Shown: piece after piece, positions 11,403 to 60,132 of the stretch | Layout: each line of letters begins with the position of its first letter | Numbering within the stretch: position 1 is the stretch's first letter | Origin: a virus | IMG/VR virus record: IMGVR_UViG_3300006919_000001 | Coordinates: 19,396-83,395 of that record | Length of the DNA: 64,000 nt | Strand: one strand, 5' to 3' | The notes under the pieces: generated by a model | What the model saw: the letters and a program-made list of their open reading frames with translations, nothing else | What the model was told of the DNA's origin: nothing | Database searches by the model: none | Translations under genes and position numbers: made by a program

Positions 11403-11476
11403 TAGCCGTCGGTGTGGGAATCGAACCCACGGTCTTTTACTGTACTGTAAATGCTCTACCTTTGAGCTATCCTCCG
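11403..11476 (-). ncRNA. Degenerate tRNA-like element (6-nt anticodon loop, mismatched acceptor stem)
   Basis: TAGCTCAAAGGTAGAGC D arm, TTTAC-AGTACA-GTAAA arm, GTGGG-TTCGATT-CCCAC T arm, ends G-CTA. Confidence 0.7.
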
Positions 11477-16377: not shown

Positions 16378-18135
16378 TTACATTATGTACTTTGCTATCT
16401 TTGAAATAGCACGTCTCCCTCTGCGCCTTTGTGATTGGGATAAGTTGAAAACTACATTACTCCCAACTGGTATTACATTTACTATTCTAGAAACTTGTAT
16501 TGCTGAATTAGAACCTGAATCAATAACGTTGTAATAAATTAAATAAGCCCCAACTGTATTTACATCTACAGTTCCACTAATTATAATACTACCCGTTACA
16601 TCTCCATCTTCAAAGTCAGATGCCGTAGCTCCTAATTCTATATATGCATCTCCTTCTTCAATATTTACAATAGATGAACCTACTAATGTTATTACAGGTG
16701 GATTCACTACTACCAAATCATCTATGACGAAACTATACATTTCAATATTGGTGTACGTAGCGCTTAAATCATATCCAACAGGGTCAAACGTATTAGGGTC
16801 TAAACCGTTATTTGTAATCCAAGTATTTGCAACTGTTGCTGTGTGTGTATTTACATCATGAGTATTTGCTATTACTCCAGAATTTAAATCATAATCAGTA
16901 TCTTTATATTGAACTAGTTCCGGTATTATTTTATAATCCAAAGCAGTTGTCCATCCAAAAGTAGTATTATTATCTATCCTATCAAAAGAGCTTGCGTCGA
17001 TTGGTTGTATTTGTTGAATCTTATTTCCATTAGAATCTACCCTTGCACAATTGCCTACATTTCTTTCTGTTATGATTTTATTTTGCCACCAAGCTGCGCT
17101 TTCTAAATCTGCTTCTAAGAAATTTATTAGTGGAAACATTGTGTCCGTCCTATAATTTTCATGAGGTGCGGAATTTAAAGGAAATATATCATGTTCAAAT
17201 TCTCCAGATGTATAGTTGGTGACTCTATTTTGCCATAAGCCTTGAGTTACTATTACTGGCTCCGGTCTATATTGACCCTGAACTACAGTGCCCGTTCCCC
17301 ACTGGTCATCAGTCGCTGTTACTCCTATTCCATTATGTACATTCCCTGCACAATATATAGTTGGTGCTGTTGTTACTGTTGGAGTCCCAACCGTGTTTGC
17401 TCTTGCTTGGTTTTTAGAACCGTTTCCAGATGGCGTTAAGTATGAGTTATTAATCTCATTTAATTGTACATTCCCCTCTGTCACCATTATTCTATTTGCC
17501 CAATCGAATACTACATTACCAATCGCATCACATCTTCCATCTATATTAACATTTGGAAAACGGTGACTCATCACGCTCCATAAATTACCAATACTTGATA
17601 AGTCTACATTTCTAGATGTATCATCACTATCCCCAAGTAGCATTCCAGTTTTACTAAAATTGAAATGGTTATTACTGTTAGTTATTCTCTCCACTACCGC
17701 ATCAACATAAGAAGCTCTAAAGCTCATAGTTTCATCTCCACCAAATGAGACGGAGCAATGGTCTACTATTACATCCTTGCATCCTATAAAATCCAAAGCA
17801 TCTCTTCCAAACCATGTGTTTCTCAAAGATACATATCTCATTATAAAATTATTTACATAATCTGCTCTAATCCCTGGACCTCCATATTCGAAGCCACCCA
17901 TCGGTGCAGTTTGACCCAATACTATTACATTTTGCAAATTAGTATAGGTTGTATTTATACTCTTACAAAGTCCTGATACATTAAAGCTAACAATCGTATT
18001 TGGATTATTCATGGCCCAAGATATTGAACCAACTCCACTGTCATCTAAATTAGTTACTATCCTATGTGTGTAGGTTACATTTGCCCTAGCATTTGCACCC
18101 CCACCAGTTGCTGTTGGAAAAGCTTTTTGTGACAT
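16378..18135 (-). CDS. Pectate lyase-like beta-helix depolymerase with C-terminal DUF5011 Ig-like domain
   Basis: AFPTATGGG, VTNLDDSG.GS, GQTAP.GG, VIVDHCSVSFGGDE, HRFP; PVITLVG...ELGATASDFEDGD. Confidence 0.85.
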   Translation of the reverse strand: MSQKAFPTATGGGANARANVTYTHRIVTNLDDSGVGSISWAMNNPNTIVSFNVSGLCKSINTTYTNLQNVIVLGQTAPMGGFEYGGPGIRADYVNNFIMRYVSLRNTWFGRDALDFIGCKDVIVDHCSVSFGGDETMSFRASYVDAVVERITNSNNHFNFSKTGMLLGDSDDTSRNVDLSSIGNLWSVMSHRFPNVNIDGRCDAIGNVVFDWANRIMVTEGNVQLNEINNSYLTPSGNGSKNQARANTVGTPTVTTAPTIYCAGNVHNGIGVTATDDQWGTGTVVQGQYRPEPVIVTQGLWQNRVTNYTSGEFEHDIFPLNSAPHENYRTDTMFPLINFLEADLESAAWWQNKIITERNVGNCARVDSNGNKIQQIQPIDASSFDRIDNNTTFGWTTALDYKIIPELVQYKDTDYDLNSGVIANTHDVNTHTATVANTWITNNGLDPNTFDPVGYDLSATYTNIEMYSFVIDDLVVVNPPVITLVGSSIVNIEEGDAYIELGATASDFEDGDVTGSIIISGTVDVNTVGAYLIYYNVIDSGSNSAIQVSRIVNVIPVGSNVVFNLSQSQRRRGRRAISKIAKYIM

Positions 18136-18179
18136 ATTTTTATTTATTTTTAAATTGTTATCTACTTCGTATTACATGA

Positions 18180-18791
18180 CTATACTAAAGCCCATCCTGC
18201 TGGATAAGCATCGGGTGTCCAAACATTAGCATTTATTAGGCTAATATATATCGGGTCATTAATTGTTGGATAGTGAACCGTATCTCCAATTTGATAAGCA
18301 TCATGACCACCAGTCGGTTGCACGAATACTAAAGTTTCCACTGTCGCTATAACCTCTAATTGCCAAAGTGCAGGCACAACATCCGGAGTCCATGAAGCTA
18401 ATGTAAAATGACTTTGGATACATTTATATGTATTACCAAGATAAGTTCTAGTATCTCCTAAAATTACATCTTCATTTTCAATCCATTCTGCTCCTTCCGT
18501 ATTTGCCCTATATATAGAAAATAAAGCTGGCGTTTCACTTGGACTAAATAAAGTCCTTTGATGTGATTGCCTTACCTCTACCATAGCTCCCTCATACGAA
18601 TATACCTCACCTTCATTAAGTTGTCCACTTGATGGAAGTATTGGATAAATATTCGCTGGGTCTGAATCCTGAATCATAGTTGGAAATCCTGTTTCCGTTA
18701 CTTGGTTTGAATCAGTAAATCCTTTATGAGTTGTCACCCCATCCGTTACTTCCCAAAATGTTCTTTTATTTGGCTTTTGTATTTTCCCCAT
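18180..18791 (-). CDS. Carbohydrate-binding (CBM5/12-like) virion protein
   Basis: YKCIQSH...WTPDVVPALW and QPTGGHDAYQIGD...NVWTP..YPAGW repeats. Confidence 0.72.
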   Translation of the reverse strand: MGKIQKPNKRTFWEVTDGVTTHKGFTDSNQVTETGFPTMIQDSDPANIYPILPSSGQLNEGEVYSYEGAMVEVRQSHQRTLFSPSETPALFSIYRANTEGAEWIENEDVILGDTRTYLGNTYKCIQSHFTLASWTPDVVPALWQLEVIATVETLVFVQPTGGHDAYQIGDTVHYPTINDPIYISLINANVWTPDAYPAGWALV

Positions 18792-18836
18792 TTTTATTTA
18801 CTTAATTATTAAGTTTAACGTGTGTTTTAAACATCC

Positions 18837-18894
18837 TAAGAGACTTTAAATTAAAAGCTTGTATAATATACTACTTTTAATTTAAAGTCTCTTA
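18837..18894. repeat. Long intergenic hairpin (TAAGAGACTTTAAAT family)
   Basis: Perfect 21-bp stem; related copies at 25305-25384 and 52013-52072. Confidence 0.8.
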
Positions 18895-18914
18895 AAACGC
18901 TTGTTATTGATTTA

Positions 18915-20825
18915 TTAGATTGTAATTTCCTTTATTGAAATTCCTATATCGCAATTAAAAACTACTGTTCCATCAAATGACATGAAAGGGCTTACAGCAC
19001 CCATTGTGAAAGCAAACTTCCAAATACCATCCGTTAAAGTATAATTAGAATATTGATAAGTTGAACCGTTATATATGTCAATCCTAGTGTCACCAGTTAA
19101 ATTAGAAATATCCAAAGTCATTTCATAAGGTACACCAGTCACACAATTCGAAAACGACAATGACGGTCTAATTGTACTACCACTAGTTCCATCGCTAGTG
19201 CAATTATAATTCAATGGAGACGTTAGAGTTGCTATTGCCCCTGCATCATTTGATATTGCTATATTACTAGCTATTTCAGTTGTCTCCAATTGTGGACTTC
19301 CAACCATCACAATATTATCAATGCTAAATGCACCTCCAGTACTGCTATTTATTGCAGCTACAAGGAAGCTGGCAGCAGAACCTGTGTTATAATTTACACC
19401 AGCATAAATATGAGAACCATTTTGAAATTTACGATAACTCACAAGATTAGGATTACCACTACCACTACCCCACATTGCAAAATAAGCATCCTCTGCAACC
19501 GCGACATTAGATATATCAAACGAAATGACATAGGTATCGTATTGTTCGATATAATCAGTAATAGATAAAATTTGACTTAATTTTTTAGAAGTTATCACCC
19601 CGTCATAAGTAGCCACTCCTGAACCTATAGACCAACTGTCTTGCACTGTCCAATCACTAGCAGTGTCAAATGTTCCATTTATGATTTGGTTATTTGAACC
19701 TCCATCAGTAATTGTCCAACCGTAAGTATTAATTAATGTATTTCTAGCTGCTTCCGCCGCTCCTCCATAACTATATCTTGAATTTCCGAAACTAATTACT
19801 TGATTTAATTGCGGTACTTGACCCGCCCAAGATATTAATGTCGCATCGTAGTTTGCTGTTGAAAGTGTTGCATCAATAATAAAAGATGTACCAAAATCTG
19901 CTATTGTAGATATATCCCAATTCGCTAAACTTCTATCAAAGTTATAACATTGGTAAAACATAGACCTTACGGTTGTAACCCCATTCATATCGAAATTTGA
20001 AACATCAACATTATTTAAAACCCTTGCTTGATAAAACAAAAGGGACATATCCGTAGCACTTGTAGTGACCCAATTGCTTACATCTAAATTTACTATAGAA
20101 TTAGTATTACTTCTAAACATTTGAGTAAATAACGTAACGTTACTCACGTCCCAATTACTAACATCTATAGTTGTTAAATTAGTATTATAAAACATTGCAG
20201 ACATATTTGTAGCGTTACTCACGTCCCAATTACTAACATCTAAAGTGGTCAAACTAGTTGAATCTCGAAACATTATGTCTAATCTGTCAGCACTAGACAT
20301 GTCCCAATTAACTACATTTAAAGATATTAAATTTGTACAACTTCTAAAAGTATCAGTCCAACGTGTAACGTCAATTAAATTAGGTATATCCGTAGCCGTT
20401 ACTGTTGTTAATTGGTTACAACCTCTAAAAGACCTATACATAGTTTTCCATGCAATTTCCCCCCATTGTTTAATATCTATTAATTTAGATTTATCACCAC
20501 CATCATTAAAAAATATACTTGGAAAATTACCACTAATTGAAACATCGTAAGTTCCAGCACTTGGAAAAGTAATTGTTAAGTTACCTATATTTCCTAAGAT
20601 TGTTTGTCCATCGGAAGTACTTACATCGTATAAGTACGTTTCAGTCCCAGTGGGTATAGTGAATTGAGTGTCTAAACTAGTTCCAACATTATCCGTTTTA
20701 ACTTGAATTATAAATGGAGCCAATGGTGGAATGTTATCATAAACTAAAGTACTTCCTAAGTATAGCTTAGATATTTCTGAGCTACCTATATACATTTTAG
20801 ATATATCTATATTTCCTATTTTCAT
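18915..20825 (-). CDS. BspA/DUF285 repeat-containing fibre or adhesin
   Basis: 25-aa LDVSNWDVSN.T.MS.MF repeats, QWG.I.W..M...F.GC, C-terminal CBM-like domains. Confidence 0.8.
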   Translation of the reverse strand: MKIGNIDISKMYIGSSEISKLYLGSTLVYDNIPPLAPFIIQVKTDNVGTSLDTQFTIPTGTETYLYDVSTSDGQTILGNIGNLTITFPSAGTYDVSISGNFPSIFFNDGGDKSKLIDIKQWGEIAWKTMYRSFRGCNQLTTVTATDIPNLIDVTRWTDTFRSCTNLISLNVVNWDMSSADRLDIMFRDSTSLTTLDVSNWDVSNATNMSAMFYNTNLTTIDVSNWDVSNVTLFTQMFRSNTNSIVNLDVSNWVTTSATDMSLLFYQARVLNNVDVSNFDMNGVTTVRSMFYQCYNFDRSLANWDISTIADFGTSFIIDATLSTANYDATLISWAGQVPQLNQVISFGNSRYSYGGAAEAARNTLINTYGWTITDGGSNNQIINGTFDTASDWTVQDSWSIGSGVATYDGVITSKKLSQILSITDYIEQYDTYVISFDISNVAVAEDAYFAMWGSGSGNPNLVSYRKFQNGSHIYAGVNYNTGSAASFLVAAINSSTGGAFSIDNIVMVGSPQLETTEIASNIAISNDAGAIATLTSPLNYNCTSDGTSGSTIRPSLSFSNCVTGVPYEMTLDISNLTGDTRIDIYNGSTYQYSNYTLTDGIWKFAFTMGAVSPFMSFDGTVVFNCDIGISIKEITI

Positions 20826-38598: not shown

Positions 38599-41500
38599 TT
38601 ATTTTAAATAGTCTCCATTGGTTAACATTTTCTCAAACGTTTCCAATCTAACCAGTAATCCTTTTTTATGAGAAGCGATTGCAACTCCAGAAGCTCTTTT
38701 TAATTTTGCAATCAAAGTTTCTAACTCAGCTTTTGGTAGTAATTCTTCTTTTTCTTTTTCCTCCTGAACCAAAGCAATCTCAGCCTCCTCAGCCTTCTTA
38801 CCAGAAATCTCTGCTAATTTATCTAATGCAGATTTGATTAGTTCATTTGCTTTTTTGCCGGGCTTCCAAACTCCCTCAATTCCCAAATCGGTAAACTTTG
38901 ATTTTAAATCTCCGTATTTTACTTTTGATAATGATTCGAATGTCTCTCCTTTTCCTTGTGTATTTTCCATAATTTGTTTTTGTTAAATTAAACCTTTTAA
39001 TTGTTTTTCTAGTTTTTTTGATGCTATTACATCCCGGATAATTGCAAGGTGCCCATACAATTCATATGGTTCAAATGCTTTTAGCATCTCCTCATTGTCT
39101 TCTGCAAATCCGGTTTCACACCAAGTCTTAAATTCATCTAGCGTTTTAAATTGCTGGATGAGGTTTGTTGGCTTGAGCAATTCTTCAAACATGGCATCCA
39201 TCTCTGTATGCCCATAATTTTTTCCCTCGAAGTGTTCGCCTCCGTTTTGGTTATCTTCGTTATACATATCCTCTGGTGTCATTTTGATTATTATTAATCG
39301 TTATCGTCGAAGTCGCTTGGGTCTCCGTATTTTGAATATAAAATATCTGAAACTATCAAAGATACTATCAAAATGATTATTAGTCTTACACAGTCCTCCA
39401 TAATGTTCTATTTTAAAGGCCGGCTTTTTACACCGGCTCTGTTAAACTTAACTTCTAAGCGCTTGGATTATTTCCTCCGCCATTATATTGGCTTGCTCTT
39501 CTTTTCTTTTCCTCGTGTCTCGGGTTAGTGTTTCTAGGTGGATTTCTGTTCCATCTATTTTAACAATTTTCTGTCCCGCCAATAAGGCTCCTACAACTTG
39601 CTCATGGTCTGTGTTTGGTAAAAATTTCATAACGGTATTTTTTATAGTTTTATAATTCATAATTTTATTAGTCAACAATTTTCATTCCTAATTTTTTCTC
39701 AGCCTCTTCTTTTGTAATGGTTGTCACAATATCAACCCACCCCGTTTCTGGAGAAAATACTATTACATTCTCACCATGGCCCATTGCCCAAACTCGATTA
39801 TAATTATCTACGTGCCAAAATTCAGAAATAGAAATAACTTTATCACCGTCTCCTCTTACTTGAGCTCCACCCGAATAACCCTTTTTATTAAATTGTATTT
39901 TTAATGCCTCATGTATTTCTTTCCCAGTCATTTCAATCAATTGCTGCGACCATCTAGTATTCGACCATGAACTTACGGCCCATTCTCCATCACTAATTTC
40001 AAAATGCTCATGTTGAACTGAACCTTCGAAAAAACCATCCTTGGTAATAGATTTAATTAGTATTTCATAATTAATACTAGTTTCTTCGTATCCATCTGGA
40101 AGTCTATACCATTTTCCAACTTCTAATTTAATTGGAAATAATCTTGGGAAAATGGCCTTAACTTCTGAAAGTTTTGGTACATAATTTTGCTCGTTTAAAT
40201 TTTTAATAAATTCTTTTTGTTCTGCGTTCATGATTTTAAAATTTGTGGGTCTATATTTATTTTTAAATAACCCGGTTTATAATTTTACTTCTTTTAATAA
40301 TCCTACTTGAGTCTGTGTTGCCTTGGTAAGTAAGTCAACTGCATTAGTATACTTCTCTACCAACTTCTCAACCTCTTTAAAGTTCTTAACTAATTCTCCC
40401 ATCATTATGGCTTTAGATACTGAGGCCACACAGGATAAATCAAAACTTCCCATTGAACCAGTATTGAGTTCTAATTTTGTACTTTCCTCTTTATTGAAAA
40501 AGTCTTCCCTGTAATACATATTGATATCAGACCCAAAAACTCTTTTACCATCCTTTTTTTCCACCAACAATTCTACTTGGTCTGAATAAACTACCGCTTT
40601 AAAATCTTCACTAAAATTTAATCCTATTACCCTAAGGCTTGATACAAATTCATCTGACATGAATTGGCGTGCATTTTTTAAAGTTGAATAAAGTGCTTTA
40701 ATTTGTTGAGCGTTTGAATTTTTCATAATATTTGATTTTAGTATTTGTTATTATTCGTTATCCAAATATACACCCACTTTATGGAATCCACACGCTTTTT
40801 TTAAAAGAATTTTTTTTTTTTTTATTAATGCTCAGTTAGCTAGGTTCGTATCAAAAAATTTTGTAACTTTGGTTCGATGTCTTTATTTTTCCCTTGTTTC
40901 CAGTTTAAACTTTTTAGACATTACTTCCCAAATTCCTTTTGGTGAAAGAAAATTGTCCGGAGTTCTCATAATGTTTGAATTTAAAGGGGGCCTTTCGACC
41001 CCTCTATTAATTATATCTTTGATAATCTCTCTTGTTCTTTTTTAAGGTCTTTCTCCAAGTAAGCTATTCTATTTACTATATGAGTAGACTCTTCCATTGC
41101 TCGGTCAATTGTTTTCTCATTGGTATCCACTATCCATTGTTTATAAACCTCGTATGAACCTTGAAATATTTCATCCCTATGGTCTTGTGGAAATTCACTC
41201 CAGTTATCATTTGTGATAAATCTGTTGGCATCATTCGCATTGATATACTCAATCCAATCTTCTCTAGTGAGTTTTGATAACATATCAGATTTCACATAGG
41301 CATTTTTAATATGCTTTTCCAACCTTGAAATATCATCCATCTTTCTCTGTTTCTTATTTTTCAAAGCAATCACTTTCTTAATCTCCTTAGCCAATACCAT
41401 ATTCCCTGTTTTAGGAAGGTTCGTTTTGGTTAGATATCTATAGTGGTCTCTCTGAATATACCCTCCAGCTATAATTGCTTCGGTTGAAAAACTATATCTC

Positions 41501-43682
41501 TTTCCACCTCTTTCAATTTCTCCAGTCATTTCAAAATTACCTTTTACTGAGGTACCAGCATTGAACCATAATAACATATCATCTTCATTGGTGTAGCTAA
41601 TAATGCTTTTGCATATATCATGTATCAATTGTAATTCAATACACTCTTTACCAAACTCGGTAACTGGCATTGCATTTTTTTCTGACTCCATCCATTTAAT
41701 AGTGCTTTCAATTTTTTTCTCAATCTGAGGCTTCATTGAATTTAACACGTTCTTTAACACTTGGTTTTTCGAAGACTCGATGTACTGGTTTGTAAATTTC
41801 ATAATATTTGGTTTTAAATTATATGTAAAGATACACCTTTTTTGAATACCTCACAACGTTTATTTCAATTATCTTTTAGTGATTTGATTCCATCTCTTTG
41901 AAGCTTCCTTTAGTGAGGTGAATCTTTGCATGCTAACAACCTTAATTTCATTAGTCACCTCGACATAGTATTGACTTGAATCATATGATACGATTCCAAA
42001 AGAACAACTGTTTGTTCCGTATGTGTTTTGGTAAGTGTGTTTTTGAGTTTTCATAATCTATATTTTTCTTATATGTAAAGATACATATAATTCTAATACG
42101 AACCTACAAATAAATTATTTTCTAAATTAATTCTCCAGAGTTAATTCTCCATCATAGACTATAAAAACGTCCTTTGCCCAAGACCTTGAAAACTCCCCAA
42201 TATGAAACGGGTCATCTTTCGACAGGTGAACCAGTGTGCCATCGAATAAATCATCCGCATGTTCTCCGCTGGTCAATATGATTTTACCATCTCCGGAACC
42301 AGACTCCATAATTACAAGCTGAGGTGTGTCCCAATTAATGGCTTGTACCTCATGTGGTGTTGCTTTACTTTTCATAATTATATTTTTTCAGCGTTAATTT
42401 TTACTACTAATCTTCTCACATACGTTGGATGGGAACCAATAGTTTTGGCAATCTCTTTTGGAATGGTATTACCTAAAGCTATTTGCTCTCTCACTTGGTC
42501 AATCCTACTTGGGACATCCTTTTTCATATGCACCGGCGTTGGAAGTTCTATTTCAACAACCTTAACTGGTACCGTTGAAAAATGCTTTTTAAACATAGCT
42601 GGCGTGGTTGTAATAACCGTTTCATCATCTACTGTAATAGTTGCCGCTCTTGTAGTAAGCTTCGTTAGAACGCCTAATACTGCTCCATTAAATTTCTTAC
42701 CATCGATTTGGTAAGGTGTGTTTACTGCAATAACTTGGTCTTGTAATTTCATAATATTTGATTTTAATTGTTTATTTTTACTTCTATTAATTTATAACCC
42801 TTGGCTTTCCCACCAAGCTTTTTCAATATCTCTAGGCCATCGCTCATAACCACTGTTGTGTTATCAACTCTTTTACCCCTCTTATATAGTTTAAATGTTC
42901 TCATAATATTTGGTTTGATAAAGATAATGAATAGTTCCTTACGAACCTACTATAATCCAATAAACTTTACATTAAATAATTCATCTGATAATCTATTGGC
43001 TTTTGCCATACTCAGTTTCGCAGTATCCTTGAGTTTCTGGCTGTAAGTATCATCATTAACCCTAATTGATATATTGTCCCTAAAGACCTCTCTACCCTTC
43101 GGAGACTTAGCCACAACTAATAAATACTGGATATTGTCAGCTCCCTCATTTACTCTTACTCCGTCATACTCTATTGTTACTAAACCTAATTTCATAATGT
43201 TTGATTTTAATGTTATTATTTCGTCTATCCAAAGATAAGTATAAATTCCTTATGAACCTACACTTATCTGAAAAACTTTTCTAAAGTTGAGGTATACCCT
43301 CAAATGATTTGGAGCTATGCTCCAACTAGAAATCCGATTTAATTAAATCCTGACATATAATAACCATCTCTTCCAACATTTGGCTGGTCAATACTGTATG
43401 ATTATCCACACTATCATCTAAGTGGCGTTTAAGTTGATTTGCAACCTTCCTCTTCTCAAACTCTACTTGGTCATATTCTACATGTTCCTCCTTGAGATAC
43501 ATCGTTAGAACGCCTCCATTGCAGTCATAGTATCCCGGGAACGATACGTAGAGGTATCCATTTTCCTCTGCTTCTTTACATACTATCTTTTGACCATCTA
43601 GGTTTTCAATAACCTCTTGTTCCATTTGCACATAGTCCGCTAACTCTAATGCAAATCCATTTGTTCTAAATACTCCTTTCAT
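38599..43682 (-). other. Cluster of small hypothetical early genes (38599, 38983, 39448, 39668, 40277, 41011, 41869, 42127, 42378, 42950, 43326)
   Basis: Co-oriented short ORFs with AAATATTATG-like leaders; many have their own consensus promoter (40763, 41826, 42076, 42919, 43230). Confidence 0.75.
40839..40871 (+). promoter_or_regulatory. Plus-strand (antisense) consensus promoter
   Basis: GCTAGGTT-N17-TAACTTTG with exact 33-bp spacing. Confidence 0.55.
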
Positions 43683-44447
43683 AATGTTTGATTTTTATAA
43701 TTGTTATTAATACTCTGGTGTGAATTCTTCTATCTTAGCCAACACCTCTGTCAACTCAGCTTCCATATTATTATTGTAAAAATGATTTCTTTGTGTTTGC
43801 AAGTAAGCTAATTCTGATAAATTTCTCATGGTGTATATATTTTTCGTTATCCAAAGATACAGAAAAGAATAACATGAACCTACTCTTTTCTGAAATCTTT
43901 TTAGAATTAATTGAGGGGAACCCTCAAAACTTTGAGACTGTGTCTCAACTAATTATTCTCCTTCAGATTTTCATACAAATCTATTACATCCACCTCCACA
44001 TAATCTCCATTGGATAGGTTTAACAAAGTCGTTCTGTCATCTCGGTTGTCCATACTCACTACATATACTTTCATAATCTATATTTATTTATATCTAAATA
44101 TACAAACAATTCTAATAAGAACCTACACTTTCTCTTGATATATTTTCAGGAAAGTTCTTTGTTTACTTGATTTTTTTTTTTTAAAAAAGTTCGGTGGAGT
44201 CCAGTCTTCCGGAGTTGGCGTTACTCCCGGCCCTTGTCACCTCTCGGTTTTTAGAAATCAGTTTTCTATTAAATCAGGCGGGTGCCTACATAGATTACTG
44301 CGCTGGTAATTATAATGGCTATTACCAGTAAGAAGACTACGTCTACTTTGTCCATTTTTTCATCGTCTTTCATAATGTTTGTTTTATAAAGGTTATTATT
44401 AATATATCTAAATATACAAATAATAACCTTTGCCTCCTACATAAATC

Positions 44448-44729
44448 TTAGTTATTTGCCCAAGTAATACATTTGAAGTTTGCATCACCAGCATCTAGAA
44501 CAATCGTGTATTCTAAATCCACGTGCATTAAATGTGGGGAACGGTCTGTGTAATGGTATGTAAATACAGCACTACCGCCTACGTAGGTTTTTGTGATATA
44601 GTCATCTCCATTCGGATTTGCACAATGAACCGTTGGCACATCGGCTTTTGTAATTACCGGTTCTGGAGAGCTCATTGAGATACTCACGATTCCAGCAAAG
44701 ATTGCCATTGTTAAAAATACTTTTTTCAT
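44448..44729 (-). CDS. Small secreted protein (probable start 44729)
   Basis: MKKVFLTMAIFAGIVSISMSS signal peptide; two Cys. Confidence 0.7.
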   Translation of the reverse strand: MKKVFLTMAIFAGIVSISMSSPEPVITKADVPTVHCANPNGDDYITKTYVGGSAVFTYHYTDRSPHLMHVDLEYTIVLDAGDANFKCITWANN

Positions 44730-44773
44730 ATAATATATATTGCGTCCCCTTTTGATTAGGCGGTGGACAATAC

Positions 44774-44950
44774 CTATTTTTTCAGTTGGAAATATATGGT
44801 TAATCCATTGTGGTGGGCCTCCACCTTGTTTAAGGCGCATAGCTCTCGCAATCCGGCGTGGACATCGTCTATGAACATATCCGCTTTTTTCGAAATGTAC
44901 GGTGCGCTACGCCCGGCTCCATCGCTTAATACTTCTAATATCTCTTCCAT
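44774..44950 (-). CDS. Small winged-helix-like protein (not in the ORF track)
   Basis: MEEILEVLSDGAGRSAPYISKKADMFIDDVHAGLRELCALNKVEAHHNGLTIYFQLKK. Confidence 0.5.
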   Translation of the reverse strand: MEEILEVLSDGAGRSAPYISKKADMFIDDVHAGLRELCALNKVEAHHNGLTIYFQLKK

Positions 44951-45040
44951 AATTATATCTTTTTCTTACATATGGTACACACACCATTTTTAGTTGAGGT
45001 CATGGCACAACACTTTTTACAAAATCTAAATTGAGCCATA

Positions 45041-45232
45041 TTACCTTATGTTAGGTCTTCCAACAAATTCGCCTTCATCATTATATTTCCAAGTCTCGGT
45101 AATGTGACAATCGTCACTGAACGCCTCCTTTATACCCATCCATTCATCGCGCGCCTCTTGTAAGGTCTTGTGACCATCTGATGAGTACTCATCGCCTTCG
45201 TTATCCTTGTAGTTAAAATCGTAAGTTGCCAT
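45041..45232 (-). CDS. Small acidic early protein
   Basis: 63 aa, D/E-rich, own promoter at 45261. Confidence 0.6.
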   Translation of the reverse strand: MATYDFNYKDNEGDEYSSDGHKTLQEARDEWMGIKEAFSDDCHITETWKYNDEGEFVGRPNIR

Positions 45233-45289
45233 AGTGTTTGTTTTATATTATTTCATTACATAAAGATACCTATAATAATTGGTTCCACT

Positions 45290-45894
45290 TACTTTTTTCT
45301 ATTAATATTTAAAGAAAAAGTTTTTTATAAAAGTCGAGGTTATATGAATTCTTTTACGTATCTTTATGTATGCCAATAGAGGCACAGAGCAAGCGAGCAA
45401 AGCTGAGACGTAGACGGCGCTGATCCCTATACCGAGATTTTTAAAACAGAGTGGTCCTTCCGCTCACTCTTTGTATGATTCGCTCCCGATGTATAAAGAT
45501 ACCATTAATAAATGGTTCCTCCTACACTTTTCTCATTTATTTTTAAATGACTACCACTCTGTTATTTTACTCATACTGCTTACTCTTACATTTTGACCCT
45601 CAGGTGAGGTCATGAAGTAAGTTCTTTCTGAGCAATGTGCTCCAACTTCTTGAAACTGTCTGTAACCGTGATTTTTATATCCTTGTAATTTTAATTCGTT
45701 TACTGTTGATGTCTGTGTTACTTTTTTCATGATATTTGGTTTTAATTATTTCTTCTATCCAAATATACCATATATATAGGTATGAACCTACACCTTTCTC
45801 ACATTTCTTTTTCGACACATGGATTTTTTTAGCTACTTTTTTCTATTAATATTTAAAGAAAAAGTTTTTTATAAAAGTCGAGGTTATGTGAATT
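45290..45894 (+). repeat. 61-bp direct repeat (45290-45350 and 45834-45894) overlapping plus-strand promoters
   Basis: TACTTTTTTCTATTAATATTTAAAGAAAAAGTTTTTTATAAAAGTCGAGGTTAT(A/G)TGAATT; 60/61 identical. Confidence 0.9.
45551..45730 (-). CDS. Small early protein (not in the ORF track)
   Basis: MKKVTQTSTVNELKLQGYK..., 59 aa; promoter at 45760-45792. Confidence 0.6.
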   Translation of the reverse strand: MKKVTQTSTVNELKLQGYKNHGYRQFQEVGAHCSERTYFMTSPEGQNVRVSSMSKITEW

Positions 45895-46070
45895 ATTTAT
45901 TGTATCTTTATATTATCATAAGAGCTACACTCCCAAGGGGAGAGGGAACCCTGTATTGAAATATTTGGATATAGGGTTCGGTGTGATTACTACCTGCCCC
46001 GGACCTCCTTCAATATAAAGATACCATTTATTCCTCACATATCCTACAAAAATCGGATTTATTTAAACAA

Positions 46071-46104
46071 GAAAAACCCCACAGATTTCTCCATGGGGTT
46101 TTTC
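46071..46104. terminator. Bidirectional terminator
   Basis: GAAAAACCCCA...TGGGGTTTTTC. Confidence 0.75.
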
Positions 46105-46112
46105 AATACTAT

Positions 46113-46640
46113 TTAATCAAACGGGTTTCCACCAGGATCTGGAGGTCCAGTTATTGCTGAAAAATCAGTTTCTGAAGATACCATTTCTTTAAACTCATCA
46201 TCGGAATTAAAAGCCGAGATTGTAAAGATAGCGGTTCCTTTCATACTTTGTGGAATATCCACATAAATTAAACCTTTCTTTTCAATAAACTTTTCTTCAT
46301 AAGTTGCATGAACTGCTCCGCTCTTATTTAAGATAATTACTTCAAGTACATAATAACAATACTTGTCCCAAGGCTGACGGTCAACATCTAGTTCTGCAAC
46401 TAGGTGTCCAGCCGAGGCTCTGGTTACACTAATAAGTGTCAAATCATAATTACCTTGTGAACCAGGGTATACCGCAGTACTCCATGGACCATAGTAACAA
46501 GAAGAGCCGGGATTATCCATAGTGCTACTTTTCGTAATCTCAGTTTCAAAAACCGATTGGTCATCCATCTGGATTGACTCATCTTTACTACAGCTGGACA
46601 TTCCAACCATAAGTACTAATAATAATAATACTTTTTTCAT
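46113..46640 (-). CDS. Lipoprotein (probable start 46640)
   Basis: MKKVLLLLVLMVGMSS-C lipobox followed by SKDE. Confidence 0.8.
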   Translation of the reverse strand: MKKVLLLLVLMVGMSSCSKDESIQMDDQSVFETEITKSSTMDNPGSSCYYGPWSTAVYPGSQGNYDLTLISVTRASAGHLVAELDVDRQPWDKYCYYVLEVIILNKSGAVHATYEEKFIEKKGLIYVDIPQSMKGTAIFTISAFNSDDEFKEMVSSETDFSAITGPPDPGGNPFD

Positions 46641-48185
46641 AAGCGTAATAGTATTTGCCTCGGGTTCGAGGACTTTATTATCCACCGGAATTATTTCCAA
46701 TGGTGTGATACAAATCAAAATGTCAAATAACTTATAAAAATGATGGTGCCAATGTACTTTTTCTATGGAAGGTTTGTTTCAACCGATTCACCATCATTGA
46801 GAAAATCCGCTGGTTCAGTTCCGGTTTTGACTCCGTTTCACACCTACCCTATTTCCTTACATAAAGATAATGAAAATATCCTTTGTAACCTACCTTTTTC
46901 TAAAAAACTTTTAAATAAATCTTTTTTACTAAATGTGTAGGTTGGTATTATAATTTTTTGTATCTTTGGTTATACGCAATAAGACGTGGGCTGGAGGGCA
47001 TATCAACTCCAGAAGAGTAGACCTGACTGAACCTCTGTTTGTAAAATCTGAGGTGTGCAATCAGTTGCCCCTTGAGGCATTGTATCAAATCCTTACATAA
47101 AGATACAAAAAAATCCTTTGAAACGCACATGTTTAGGCTAAAGATTTTGTCGAATTGTCATTTTGACAAAAATATGTAACTAGTTGATACTTAAATGCAA
47201 GCTATGTCTTTTTACCGGGGTTGATGCAAGCTTTTTTGCAAGAAAACGGCTTTCCACTGAGAATAGTGCAAAAGCACGGATTTGTTCATAAAGAAAAGTG
47301 TTAAAAAATTTGGATATAAAAGAAAAAAAGCGCGCCTGTTTGTTCCCCCACCTTTTTTTAAGTCCGTTGTTGTAAAACTTCTAATAACCAAAACATAGCG
47401 ATACAAGGGTTTTTTCCGTAACTATGTGGGGATGTGGCCCTTTACTCAAATCTGGTATAAGACCTCCTGTTTTTACAATCCTGTTCCTAAAATCCATACC
47501 TTGGAGTCCTTCCTACTGTATGGGTAAATATCATCCAGTTGTTAATGTTTCTGTCCGTTTGGTTGAATTTGATTCTATTTCTATTCTTTGTTTTTTTTTG
47601 TATAACTTGCTCTTTTTTATAGATTTTCTATTGTTCGTTTTCTTTTTTAGTGTTGACCTGCCGTTTTGTTCATTTTGGTATAAACGCGATATGCTCATTT
47701 CTAAGGCTATATCTCTTATGCATTCATATAACTATGACACTTTATCTTTAAACGCTGTTAAATCGATTGTATGGGAGCTTATATGCATCTCTTATAAAGA
47801 GTTTAATATAATTATTATATTTTTGCATATGGTATATACACTCTTGTATTACATCTTTGGCAATACAAATGGTGTGTTATTACACTATGGTCTACTTTCT
47901 TTTCTTCTGTACTATCTTTATATACTACTAGGTTACTTGCTTTGTGTTTACATTTGAATATCATAGCTTTATTATTCTACTGGTTGACTGTTTTGTAATT
48001 CCTCCAGCTCCTCCTTGGTCATATACTTTATGCTGAAGTAGTCTTCCTTCTCTTCTATTATTCCAATATGACTCAAGCCTCCTGACTTAGGGGTGTTCAT
48101 CATATAGTTTACCGTGTGTTTCATTATAAATAATCTCATATCTTTTTTATTTTAATTATTTTCGTTATACAAATATACTTCTTTT

Positions 48186-57813: not shown

Positions 57814-60132
57814 CTACGAAAAAAACCAGTCTGAGTTTTTCAGTTCATCAATCCCCTTCTCCAAATCAAACCCTCTAAACGATGGAACCTCGACTTTACT
57901 TAACTCTTTCTGTATCTTAGATTCTCCAGATACCTGAGCCCTAAGCTCCTTGTCAAGCGTGTAGAGAGGCTTTCTCTTAATTAACTTATTGAACTCCTCC
58001 TTTGTAATATCTAGCATCACATCCACGTAATTTGGATGACACCCATATGAGTCATGAATCCAATCCGAATTTTCAATACCAGCCTTCTTCATCTTCATAG
58101 CCACTCTCCTTAGTAATTCAGCATCCAGTGCGTGAATATAATTTGGAGATATTGCTGACCGCATCTTAGCTGGAGAAACCCTTTTTGAAAACGTTTTCTT
58201 ACTAATGGTTACCCTTGACCTAGAGCCCGGCAAGGTACATAGTATTTGCCTTGACTTTAATTCCTTATTCTTTTTGTGTTCCACATAGAATCCATCATCG
58301 GTCGTCCACGTTACCTTACAATCTCCTCTTGAGATTAAATTACACATTCGTTGTACATATACCTCAAAGGCTTTACCGCCGTTTAAAACGCCTTGTATTG
58401 AGTCTCCAATTATCTTGGAGAATAATGCCGCGTTCTTCTTGGTAATCCACTTGTGTTCACATTTCAATTCCCTAAACATCTGCCATAGAATTTCAGCCCT
58501 ACCCTGAGCAGTTCCACCATAGTTGGAAACCATTGTAGGTTGCTTGCATATCTTTCTTCCATGCTCTGATAACAAATCTCTTAGAAATTCTAAGATTTCT
58601 CTCTCCGCTTTGTCATTGGACTGTATGATGCGTTTTTTAGTTTCCTCAATTGATTTCTGAGCCACCAACATATACGCATCCTGTCTTAGTATTTCACCAT
58701 CCTCATCATAAGTTGGCATCACATTAGTTGCTAGACATCCAGCTTTATCACCGGTGATGGCGCTAGTAAATTGAGAACCACTATTGCAGGCATCCAAATG
58801 TATTCTAGTATTTGGTGTATACATTCTATCATTCTCCCATTCATTCAATTCGATTTGGTGAGATAGGAATTGGTACGGTTCATCTGCTTCCATATAATCC
58901 GCATCAATCAAGTCTTTGCCTCTTTCAACTCTTTCTTCAAATGGTAATTTATCATCTCCATATAAACTTGCAAGGTATGCCCAATTCCATTCTGTACCGG
59001 CACTGGTTGGAGCCTCAACCTCTTTATACAATAGAAGCGCCTTAACAGCATCGGAGCCTTGAGGTGACAAACCAACTGGTAGCGGATAGATTCTTCCTCT
59101 AAAGTCATAAGAATGCGGAAAGTATAATACCTCCTCATCTTTATATCTATCAGCTATTCCAACAGCCAACTTTACGGCCCTATATTTACCGACCGCGCTT
59201 TCATAATCTCCCTTTTCCGCATTGTACAATTCAATCTGCTCCCTCGTTCTTAACCTTAGTTCTATAATCTCATTTTTCTTTTCCTCAGACATTTCCACAT
59301 CTTCCTCTAAGTCTTTTTCCCACACACATCCCCCCATCTCTGGAAATTCAGTATGGATGAAGTCGCTTTTTTTAGGGACACTAAGGTCTCTCTTTAGTTG
59401 GGCCAAAACTACTTTATTAATAACCCATGGAGTAGACTGTATGTAGTTTAGGCTGTTGTAAATCTTTTTAGAGAATGGCTCATACTCAATTTGAGAACCT
59501 GAAGGAGACCTTACCATCTCATATTGGTAATCTTCATAACCACCAGTGATTCCTAATTCGGGGTCATAGGTCCAATCAATTGGTTTAACCAACATAGGTT
59601 GAGGATAAAATGCCTCGGCCGCCTCTATGGTTAACTTCCCGATTATGGTCTCGGATAGCGTACATCTATAATTTAACCTCCATCTGTAGGTTTCTCCTTT
59701 TCTGTCCATCTCTCTTTCCGTATGAAAGTATGAGCTATAATCAACTATAACCTCTACCACTCTCCAAACCTCATCAAAGCCCAATTCTGGCATTAACTTA
59801 TCTTGAAGTGTTTGTATTTTTCTATGGCGATTTAAACTCTCTCCCTTTTGCTTGATGTCACCGGACAATAATAACATCACCTCCACGATTCTAACCAGTA
59901 AGATTTCGTCATCAGTAAAGTAGTTCTTATAAGCCTTTCTATGCATCTTTGCACAACCGGTACTTATCCAAACTTTTACATCATCAAAGATTCTCAATCC
60001 TTCGTCTAATAATAGTCTTTTTCCAATCTGTGTTGATGAAGCCTTCTTAGTGTCAAGAAAGTCTTTTGTCATAATGCCTTTCCACACCTGCCTCTCACCT
60101 AAGCGTTTCATTTGAAGTTCGTTTACATTCAT
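57814..60132 (-). CDS. T7-like single-subunit DNA-directed RNA polymerase
   Basis: DFRGRIY, PQGSD..KALL, HLDACNSGSQ (motif A), RKICKQPTMVSNYGGT (motif B), PNYIHALDA, IHDSYG (motif C). Confidence 0.95.
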   Translation of the reverse strand: MNVNELQMKRLGERQVWKGIMTKDFLDTKKASSTQIGKRLLLDEGLRIFDDVKVWISTGCAKMHRKAYKNYFTDDEILLVRIVEVMLLLSGDIKQKGESLNRHRKIQTLQDKLMPELGFDEVWRVVEVIVDYSSYFHTEREMDRKGETYRWRLNYRCTLSETIIGKLTIEAAEAFYPQPMLVKPIDWTYDPELGITGGYEDYQYEMVRSPSGSQIEYEPFSKKIYNSLNYIQSTPWVINKVVLAQLKRDLSVPKKSDFIHTEFPEMGGCVWEKDLEEDVEMSEEKKNEIIELRLRTREQIELYNAEKGDYESAVGKYRAVKLAVGIADRYKDEEVLYFPHSYDFRGRIYPLPVGLSPQGSDAVKALLLYKEVEAPTSAGTEWNWAYLASLYGDDKLPFEERVERGKDLIDADYMEADEPYQFLSHQIELNEWENDRMYTPNTRIHLDACNSGSQFTSAITGDKAGCLATNVMPTYDEDGEILRQDAYMLVAQKSIEETKKRIIQSNDKAEREILEFLRDLLSEHGRKICKQPTMVSNYGGTAQGRAEILWQMFRELKCEHKWITKKNAALFSKIIGDSIQGVLNGGKAFEVYVQRMCNLISRGDCKVTWTTDDGFYVEHKKNKELKSRQILCTLPGSRSRVTISKKTFSKRVSPAKMRSAISPNYIHALDAELLRRVAMKMKKAGIENSDWIHDSYGCHPNYVDVMLDITKEEFNKLIKRKPLYTLDKELRAQVSGESKIQKELSKVEVPSFRGFDLEKGIDELKNSDWFFS

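Follow-up and report, generated by a model that had tools for sequence, protein, structure and literature searches.

The stretch of DNA analysed here, referred to below as the window, comprises 64,000 nt of a viral genome, namely bases 19396-83395 of the 83,395-bp IMG/VR record IMGVR_UViG_3300006919_000001, a record with terminal repeats; positions are those of the window unless another locus is named. At about 42-47 kb it carries a series of small genes, and among these lie three non-coding cassettes, each built of a GC-rich spacer set between a plus-strand promoter and a minus-strand promoter that point at one another. The initial annotation had offered two explanations for this layout: an early small-RNA array, possibly of sense/antisense pairs or anti-defence RNAs, or head-to-head traps that sequester host RNA polymerase (RNAP) or help to pull DNA in during entry. 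Our comparisons lend support to the small-RNA array, in that cassette 3 and a further site, C0 (near position 44241, where a similar element had been noticed), belong to a conserved family whose hairpin covaries and most of whose copies have a predicted promoter and a U-run. The promoter-faces-promoter layout itself is found again in Cellulophaga phage phiST and Tenacibaculum phage Larrie.

The minus strand carries all 23 open reading frames (ORFs) of 250 aa or more. PHROG matches in the window include a primase-helicase, a portal, a large terminase and a DnaE-type polymerase, together with a single-subunit T7-like RNAP. By tblastn this RNAP is 55.8% identical to those of the Cellulophaga phages phiST, phi19:2 and phi13:1 and 49.5% identical to that of Larrie, all of them Cbastvirus. 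The similarity suggests that the window phage is a distant, Cbastvirus-like relative of phiST, whose host would be some Flavobacteriia-type member of the Bacteroidota. Phage DNA searches in near and distant modes returned no match.

Promoters were scored with a position weight matrix (PWM) made from the phage's own repeated 52-nt promoter, tGTAGGTTcgTA-(N)-gTATCTTTa; the scores are descriptive only, because the matrix was trained on the very sites scored. The promoter motif, GTAGGTT-N17-TATCTTT, reaches at least 12 bits at 22 sites in the 83,395-bp genome, compared with 0-3 sites in each of ten shuffles. Eighteen of these sites are on the minus strand, and each of the small genes at about 42-47 kb is preceded by a shared promoter motif of 40-50 nt; four are on the plus strand, three of them in the cassettes. 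The plus-strand promoters that had been placed at the three cassettes were thus recovered (Table 1), as was a fourth promoter that had been assigned to a long leader. As for the minus-strand promoters said to face them, those of cassettes 1 and 2 are full matches and that of cassette 3 is present in its -7 half only, which scores 17.8 bits, a level reached at only 21 sites genome-wide. At each cassette the plus-strand promoter and the proximal promoter of a minus-strand gene are placed back to back. In gene direction a distal promoter comes first, followed by the spacer, the anti-gene promoter in reverse direction, AT-rich DNA and, last, the proximal promoter with its gene. The consensus of Bacteroidetes promoters consists of TTTG at -33 and TAnnTTTG at -7, and the 3' half of the motif (TAnnTTTg/a) presumably corresponds to this -7 element; related phages have TTTG or TTAGG at the position of the window phage's GTAGG. 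From the likeness at -7 and these upstream differences we read the sites as putative host sigma-A-type early promoters with a phage-specific upstream part. Finally, the promoters take part in repeats: the AT-rich inter-promoter DNA and the plus-strand promoter recur as a 78-nt repeat (D2), two copies of which are 544 bp apart, and the promoters of a facing pair form an inverted repeat, which around cassette 2 covers 34 nt at 79%.

Table 1. Features of the cassette region and its surroundings (window positions; bits are PWM scores unless a model is named)
Feature	Position	Strand	Remarks
Copy C0 of the conserved element	44179-44243	-	GGGC, hairpin CCGG(G)AG/CTCCGG, GGAAGACTGGACTCCACC, then T6; R1 63.9 bits, R3 45.4 bits
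34-aa hydrophobic ORF	44269-44373	-	transcript from promoter 44396-44447 would run into C0
Proximal promoter of gene 45041-45232	45248-45299	-	36.7 bits; back to back with cassette 1 plus-strand promoter
Repeat D2, copy 1	45290-45367		78 nt; AT-rich inter-promoter DNA and plus-strand promoter; 94% identical to copy 2
Plus-strand (anti-gene) promoter, cassette 1	45328-45379	+	33.4 bits
Cassette 1 spacer	45372-45488		51% GC; AT-rich centre GAGATTTTTAAAACAGAG
Facing promoter, cassette 1	45481-45532	-	34.0 bits; full match
Proximal promoter of gene 45551-45730	45747-45798	-	44.2 bits; back to back with cassette 2 plus-strand promoter
Repeat D2, copy 2	45834-45911		94% identical to copy 1
Plus-strand promoter, cassette 2	45872-45923	+	32.6 bits
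G module (CCCAAGGGGAGAGGGAACCC...TGAAATATTT), purine-rich	45926-45968	+	predicted start of cassette 2 plus-strand transcript
11-bp hairpin (one G-T pair)	45947-45979		around AT-rich centre of cassette 2
Possible diverged core (GGGGCAGGTAGTAATCACACCGAACCC)	45974-46000	-	like Larrie copy 1 by eye only; undetected by R1 or R3
Facing promoter, cassette 2	46003-46054	-	32.9 bits; full match
Two-way terminator hairpin	46071-46104		after gene 46113-46640
Promoter of ~200-nt leader and lipoprotein-like gene	46849-46900	-	41.9 bits; back to back with cassette 3 promoter
Repeat D2, third copy	46892-46969		62% identical
Plus-strand promoter, cassette 3	46930-46981	+	47.6 bits
Copy C3 of the conserved element	46978-47042	+	GGGC, hairpin CTGGAG/CTCCAG, GAAGAGTAGAC; R1 58.6 bits, R3 31.3 bits
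AT-rich centre of cassette 3 (CTCTGTTTGTAAAATCT)	47033-47049	+	loop of CCTC/GAGG hairpin
Partial facing promoter, cassette 3	47085-47136	-	whole site -0.7 bits
Single-subunit T7-like RNAP	57814-60132		PHROG match

Several further observations concern promoters and their repeats. The fourth plus-strand promoter-like site (40833-40884, 21.9 bits) has neither a facing promoter nor a cassette and aims at the terminator hairpin of gene 41011-41802. In one metagenome run, a 549-nt contig between the 94%-identical D2 repeats (45314-45862) has a word depth of 63.4, compared with about 35 in the flanking contigs, and the excess may reflect a tandem duplication of cassette 1 with its 59-aa gene or heterogeneity of the population. 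In the related locus L005 (2940-4140), near-identical modules separate early genes: the loop of a hairpin, GGTAGG...CCTACC, contains the -33 element and the -7 box comes next, so that terminator and promoter are fused. Larrie (16813-19860) has GTTAAA(A/G)TTTTGTTAAAA at least 7 times, in AT-rich stretches that separate back-to-back promoters, as a possible regulator site or UP-like element. In locus L065 (5050-5095) a near-perfect inverted repeat (TTTGCAAAGGT ... ACCTTTGCAAA) makes up the promoter that faces the RNA gene; similar ones occur in L052, L057, L060, L068, L072 and L079, a hint of an operator for a dimeric regulator.

As had been described, the three spacers are GC-rich (0.51, 0.48 and 0.47 in cassettes 1 to 3 vs 0.351 for the genome) and hold no credible ORF. 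The hairpins reported in them are all present: AGAGTG (45448-53) with CACTCT (45465-70) in cassette 1, GAACCCTGTAT (45947-57) with ATATAGGGTTC (45969-79) and one G-T pair in cassette 2, and CTGGAG (46991-96) with CTCCAG (47007-12) in cassette 3. A common plan can be recognised, in which a GC-rich arm is followed by an AT-rich centre, often a T-run and then an A-run, and by another GC-rich arm. The central motif of 17 nt said to be shared by two spacers is indeed found at both sites, at 45435-51 on the minus strand and, with 2 mismatches, at 47033-49 on the plus strand; by itself it does not exceed chance, given four matches with up to 3 mismatches vs a mean of 1.22 and a count of four in 6 of 100 shuffles. 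What it represents is the AT-rich centre of the cassettes. A likeness between this motif and the class II pause signal of T7 is possible. Within 43800-47700, a repeat search (seed 9, minimum length 14) found no direct repeat with both copies inside one spacer, and Rfam (release 15) gave 8 weak matches (E 1.2-7.1) far under threshold, none of which covers a spacer sensibly; the only hit to reach its gathering score was a tRNA at 11406-11476. No tRNA was called by ARAGORN in the cassette region.

Four candidate coding sequences in and around the spacers were rejected. A 60-aa ORF at 46948-47130 on the minus strand starts upstream of the supposed -7 box, and its similarity to outside sequences extends over just the 19 aa that overlie the RNA core described below. 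For a plus-strand ORF of 177 aa behind cassette 3, about 750 kb of related loci contain no relative, and its first-position purine content is 0.42 vs 0.64-0.72 in real genes. Two micro-peptide frames over the core, VYSSGV... and, on the opposite strand, ...SLLF, seem conserved at first sight, but they mostly lack starts (in the latter a start codon is found in just 4 of 11 family copies) and their substitutions are non-synonymous, with those in the core falling mostly at codon positions 1 and 2 of the micro-ORF frame.

The evidence that carries our interpretation comes from a conserved element, here called the GGGY element, which consists of a short leader, GGGY, a hairpin of variable sequence, the near-invariant core GAAGAGUAGAC(UCCAACCUACC) and usually a U-run. 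In the window it occurs as C3, in cassette 3, and as C0, which lies directly after a 34-aa ORF and has no promoter of its own. By blastn, cassette 3 is weakly similar to 44189-44238 on the opposite strand of the window, and C3 is 75% identical over 56 nt to a sequence in L005 (E 1.3e-7); the 19-mer core of cassette 3 recurs in C0 with 3 mismatches, where 0.00 such matches are expected. We searched more widely with R1, a covariance model built from a MAFFT alignment of 7 sequences; a broader model, R3, was applied to the window. Both C3 and C0 are in the training set of R1, and their independent support is the 19-mer test and the blastn match to L005. The 12-mer GGAAGAGTAGAC, allowed up to 2 mismatches across all loci, locates the core once in phiST, twice in Larrie and once in the metagenome locus L011, and with R1 Larrie gains one further copy and phiST two, giving 3 copies per complete genome.

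Beyond these loci, a first scan of IMG/VR with a degenerate 19-mer gave one true match and one chance match in a coding sequence. The exact 16-mer GTAGACTCCAACCTAC, on the other hand, occurs in 42 IMG/VR stretches, many of them on contigs with 2-5 copies, and in these stretches R1 reports 57 matches at E <= 0.01, of which 48 are distinct; the family as a whole amounts to 57 distinct sequences. In 596 Gb of bacterial and archaeal genomes the 16-mer is found in only 20 stretches, and just 4 of these cellular loci, on contigs of 2.5-39 kb from three metagenome-assembled genomes, pass the model, which suggests that the element is essentially viral. Literature searches at the level of titles and abstracts gave no description of the GGGY-hairpin-GAAGAGUAGAC RNA or of the cassettes, nor any phage small RNA of Bacteroidota. 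Taken together, the sequence comparisons point to a new and widespread phage RNA family in an unusual convergent setting. A separate peculiarity of Larrie is that its cassette 1 core GGGTAGACTCC (16963-16973) has a perfect 11-nt inverted copy 50 nt downstream (17024-17034); the facing transcript would then carry core-like sequence, or the core RNA could mask itself.

The conservation and covariation in related phages that the initial annotation had proposed to examine are clearest in the hairpin 5' of the core, which differs in sequence and keeps its pairing in every copy. In C3 and C0 it stands directly 5' of GAAGAG, and elsewhere it reads GGTG/CACC (L005), CGAGC/GUUCG (phiST), CGAAC/GUUCG, AGUAU/GUACU and GCGCAU/AUGCGC (the Larrie copies) and CC(U)GAU/AUCGG (L011). 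Across the 57 distinct sequences, 87.8% of hairpin cells are paired vs 50.9% after shuffling, a value that none of 500 shuffles reaches; all 5 pairs have changes on both sides, and slid registers pair at 23-51%. This alignment is model-fitted and 16-mer-seeded, and two independent checks agree with it. The MAFFT alignment of 7 copies, not model-fitted, shows the same helix with 4 of 5 pairs compensated, and when the segment is folded alone, 51 of the 53 analysed copies form a stem of 4 bp or more, 7 of 60 copies having been left out as their core was not matched by the search pattern. By eye, many copies also have an extra small 5' hairpin of variable sequence.

The flanks of the element bear the marks expected of a transcription unit. 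Among the 56 copies with full flanks, 46 have a same-strand host-type -7 box no more than 60 nt upstream, usually 10-29 nt before GGGY, and for C3 this promoter is the 47.6-bit site of cassette 3. Copies end in ...CCUACCUUAUAUUUU(U)n, most of them with ...GUAGACUCCAACCUACCUUAUAUUUU at the 3' end and then further U. In most relatives the near-invariant stretch folds into a short terminator hairpin ahead of a U-run. For Larrie copy 3 and the L011 copy this is GUAG/CUAC, lengthened by pairs on its flanks and adjoining the U-run, so that their fold is a hairpin, a terminator hairpin and a U-run. From these signals the length of the RNA is estimated at about 65-85 nt. As for the convergent layout, phiST copy 3 has its own promoter and a second one facing it about 125 nt away and phiST copy 2 a facing promoter only; Larrie copies 1 and 3 have both promoters, and a two-way terminator closes Larrie copy 2. 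In one subfamily from IMG/VR the facing promoter follows the U-run at a distance of about 25-35 nt. Given that 26 of the 56 copies have no facing -7 box within 150 nt, the facing layout appears to be recurrent, not universal. Orientation varies too: the core is on the gene strand in phiST (where the local genes gp001-010 and gp107-109 run leftward), in L011 and in C0, and on the anti-gene strand in cassette 3, L005, Larrie and L065. With facing promoters that form inverted repeats, recombination could easily invert the spacer and so switch between the two orientations. We rejected the idea of a promoter for the phage RNAP on the strand opposite the core, because its orientation to the genes is inconsistent.

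Cassettes 1 and 2 are related to this family more loosely. The G module of cassette 2 is 77% identical over 35 nt to phiST (blastn, E 0.004), where it matches the start of the transcripts predicted to face the core in copies 2 and 3. A sequence model of this module and two phiST copies, R2, recovers the third phiST copy, on which it was not trained, in the expected place and on the expected strand (15.3 bits, E 0.0043). A small-RNA reading of cassette 2 is plausible. Cassette 1 has no significant similarity elsewhere; it shows weaker resemblances to the same modules (GAGACGTAGACGG on the plus strand, ATCGGGAGCGAATC on the minus strand), and its minus strand carries the AGAGTG/CACTCT hairpin followed by GTTTT. 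What it appears to have in common with the other cassettes is architecture only.

We consider it reasonably probable that the cassettes are early, independently transcribed non-coding small-RNA units, often arranged as convergent pairs that end at a shared AT-rich centre, and the evidence above supports the view that cassette 3 and C0 would encode a conserved small RNA. Host RNAP would start early at both Bacteroidetes-type promoters of a cassette, and both polymerases would mostly stop at the shared centre (a T-run, then an A-run), which would offer a hairpin and a U-tract to each strand and thereby release two short hairpin RNAs with little read-through into the neighbours. The minus-strand RNA of cassette 1, for instance, would measure about 50 nt and consist of the hairpin AGAGUG/CACUCU followed by GUUUU. 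From the second promoter of a clamped cassette would come another short RNA, rich in purines, which in cassette 2 and the phiST cassettes is the G module. Sense/antisense pairs, as originally suggested, are possible in such a layout, although the AT-rich centre suggests that transcripts mostly end before they overlap. Given that the core is free in orientation and overlaps no gene, the core RNA most likely acts in trans, where the invariant GAAGAGUAGAC would be the binding site for a conserved protein or RNA partner, and the facing promoter would add a partner RNA and shield neighbouring genes; a role as cis-antisense RNA of a particular gene is unlikely. A search of the phage for a second site complementary to the core (18-mer, up to 3 mismatches, both strands) found none, just the copy at 44193-44210. 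Bacteroidota mostly ignore Shine-Dalgarno sequences and are not known to have Hfq. A bolder proposal, which we offer tentatively and consider doubtful, is that these are undescribed multi-copy 'twin' small-RNA cassettes of Bacteroidota phages, in which facing promoters release a pair of hairpin RNAs and GAAGAGUAGAC(UCCAACCUACC) captures, early in infection, some conserved factor of the host, for instance a nuclease, a defence sensor or an RNA-binding protein. Inversion of the cassette between its promoter repeats could then leave its expression intact, which would explain the free orientation.

A number of points weigh against the small-RNA interpretation. Every transcript start, end and product is a prediction, and the folding energies of the single sequences are ordinary (z -1.57 to +0.98). 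The facing site of cassette 3 is only half a promoter, with the upstream half absent (-18.5 bits), and facing -7 boxes within 150 nt occur in 30 of the 56 copies vs 34% of random windows, a modest enrichment. C3 itself departs from the family consensus in its 3' half, where CCTGACTGAACC replaces TCCAACCTACC, and is followed only by TGTTTGT, with no clear U-run terminator. Cassettes 1 and 2 (45372-45488 and 45916-46010, both strands) were missed by R1 and R3 with filters off, the best model match in their area scoring 6.4 bits (E 2.5), and their kinship consists of architecture, one modest blastn match (that of cassette 2) and resemblance by eye. The family alignment was collected with an exact 16-mer, and the conservation of that stretch partly reflects this choice of sequences. 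Furthermore, 14 of 16 IMG/VR records with a related RNAP, including all 3 that are at least 90% complete, give no match, and the other 2 give weak matches only (18.6 bits). The covariation would fit a hairpin in DNA too, and some probability has to be left to a DNA-level role, to conditional terminators and to relics of cassette shuffling.

Conditional terminators would combine a promoter-proximal RNA signal with a terminator through which a phage factor, or the RNA itself, later permits read-through, as with lambda PR'-tR' and Q or with nut/put sites, and the read-through would activate downstream genes or make antisense RNA that silences early genes. The order of promoter, hairpin, invariant linear stretch and terminator fits this, as do the several copies per genome in early regions and the ability of the hairpin parts of Larrie copy 1 and C0 to pair alternatively with downstream repeats of the same short word. 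We nonetheless regard it as rather unlikely: the core does not keep one orientation to the genes, the next gene usually has its own promoter (a same-strand box lies downstream in 33 of 56 copies, called about the background rate of 36%), and in the window and in Larrie read-through would meet no same-strand gene. Nor do we think it likely, the chance being small in our judgement, that the spacers are functionless leftovers, sometimes inverted, of promoter-gene-terminator modules recombining through their promoter repeats. Such shuffling would account for the near-identity of the two D2 repeats, the roughly doubled depth of the contig between them, the inverted-repeat promoters, the flipping core and the want of clear relatives of cassettes 1 and 2. 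It accounts poorly for a core and a covarying hairpin that are kept among phages whose RNAPs are only 50-56% identical, in surroundings where 2 of 3 small genes tried have no detectable relatives and 8 of 8 small proteins no PHROG family, and for plus-strand promoters that fit the consensus as well as gene promoters do.

Covariation is equally compatible with an element that acts in DNA, be it a replication or priming site opened by two-sided transcription or a site for a phage protein, with the RNAs as by-products. The layout of GC-rich arm, AT-rich centre and GC-rich arm would suit such an element, and a non-coding region of 0.8-1.2 kb adjoins both cassette 3 and its counterpart in L005, where it contains iteron-like repeats. 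We hold this to be improbable, given that the cumulative GC skew is monotonic with no replication-origin signal, that several copies per genome stand alone with a promoter and a U-run, and that U-run and promoter spacing are features of transcripts. Very improbable, finally, is a transcriptional interference switch, in which the facing promoters throttle each other as in coliphages 186 and P2 and thereby time the gene behind the distal minus-strand promoter. The order of elements is the same in every window cassette and the PWM windows are about 80-103 nt apart, both in keeping with a switch; yet a proximal promoter precedes each gene, the plus-strand promoters drive none, and the conserved covarying core and the stand-alone copies would go unexplained. 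Traps for host RNAP and aids to DNA entry are unsupported, in that the genome holds only three such sites, facing promoters would oppose a one-way pulling in of DNA, and many family members stand alone. Likewise, nothing supports an anti-defence role for the RNAs, and no comparison with CRISPR repeats or host RNAs was made.

The small-RNA units that we favour can be set beside several known systems. Lambda OOP, P22 sar and lambda PreS are likewise short non-coding transcripts, which phages encode in their early or regulatory regions and which run from a constitutive host-type promoter to a hairpin with a U-run. Each of them has a known target in the host or overlaps one particular target gene, whereas the GGGY element overlaps no gene, flips its orientation, occurs in 2-5 copies per genome and places a variable hairpin beside an invariant stretch of 11-22 nt; an Rfam search showed no sequence or family relationship to RNAs of this type. 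Coliphages 186 (pR/pL) and P2 (Pe/Pc) also have face-to-face promoters at a distance of the same order. There, however, each promoter drives the gene set of an alternative life style, whereas here one promoter per pair drives none, and conserved RNA modules lie between the two. Of the features of the 186/P2 type, short-range facing promoters are thus present (the third pair by half) and a gene set for each promoter is absent, there being no plus-strand gene. The promoter-early stem-loop (PeSL) cassettes of T4-type phages are also repeated early-promoter modules between small ORFs in a variable early region with signs of repeat recombination; all of them run in gene direction and no enclosed conserved non-coding RNAs have been reported, while here promoters also oppose the genes. 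Lambda PR'-6S RNA-tR' similarly joins a constitutive promoter to a terminator at short range and yields a short RNA, but as a single Q-controlled copy directly upstream of the late operon, in contrast to several copies in either orientation with a next gene that has its own promoter.

The element is present in two cultured phage-host pairs, phiST with Cellulophaga baltica and Larrie with Tenacibaculum, which make early RNA-level takeover in marine and freshwater Flavobacteriia directly accessible to experiment. Moreover, the clamped plan of promoter, RNA, shared AT-rich stop, RNA and promoter would be an unusual way to produce and confine small RNAs, and is of interest both for the mechanics of transcription and as a compact genetic part.

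None of the 8 neighbouring small proteins tested has a PHROG family, searches in IMG/VR found no relatives of genes 46113-46640 and 45551-45730, and a search for relatives of the T9SS-type protein gave none. A 63-aa gene has relatives in L005 and 9 metagenome loci, among which blastn finds the RNA element only in L009, the same phage as L005; the copy in L011 was found later by the covariance model. Four metagenome runs contain DNA contigs of the same phage, with no informative variants among them.

Some minor observations remain. Adjoining cassette 3 is a region of about 0.8 kb (47136-47970) that holds no convincing gene, and its counterpart in L005 (about 1370-2660) contains iteron-like repeats (tcaagctttg; tcctcactacgtc). 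In the remainder of the window, the ARAGORN output has an unusual tRNA, its type undetermined, at 2165-2254 on the minus strand and lacks the Rfam tRNA, which is also on the minus strand. The leader of about 200 nt ahead of the lipoprotein-like gene (46641-46845, minus strand) folds better than its shuffles (z -2.51, with 3 of 200 as good) and contains a 9-bp hairpin, AUGAUGGUG/CACCAUCAU, followed by U5, which could be an attenuator or another small RNA.

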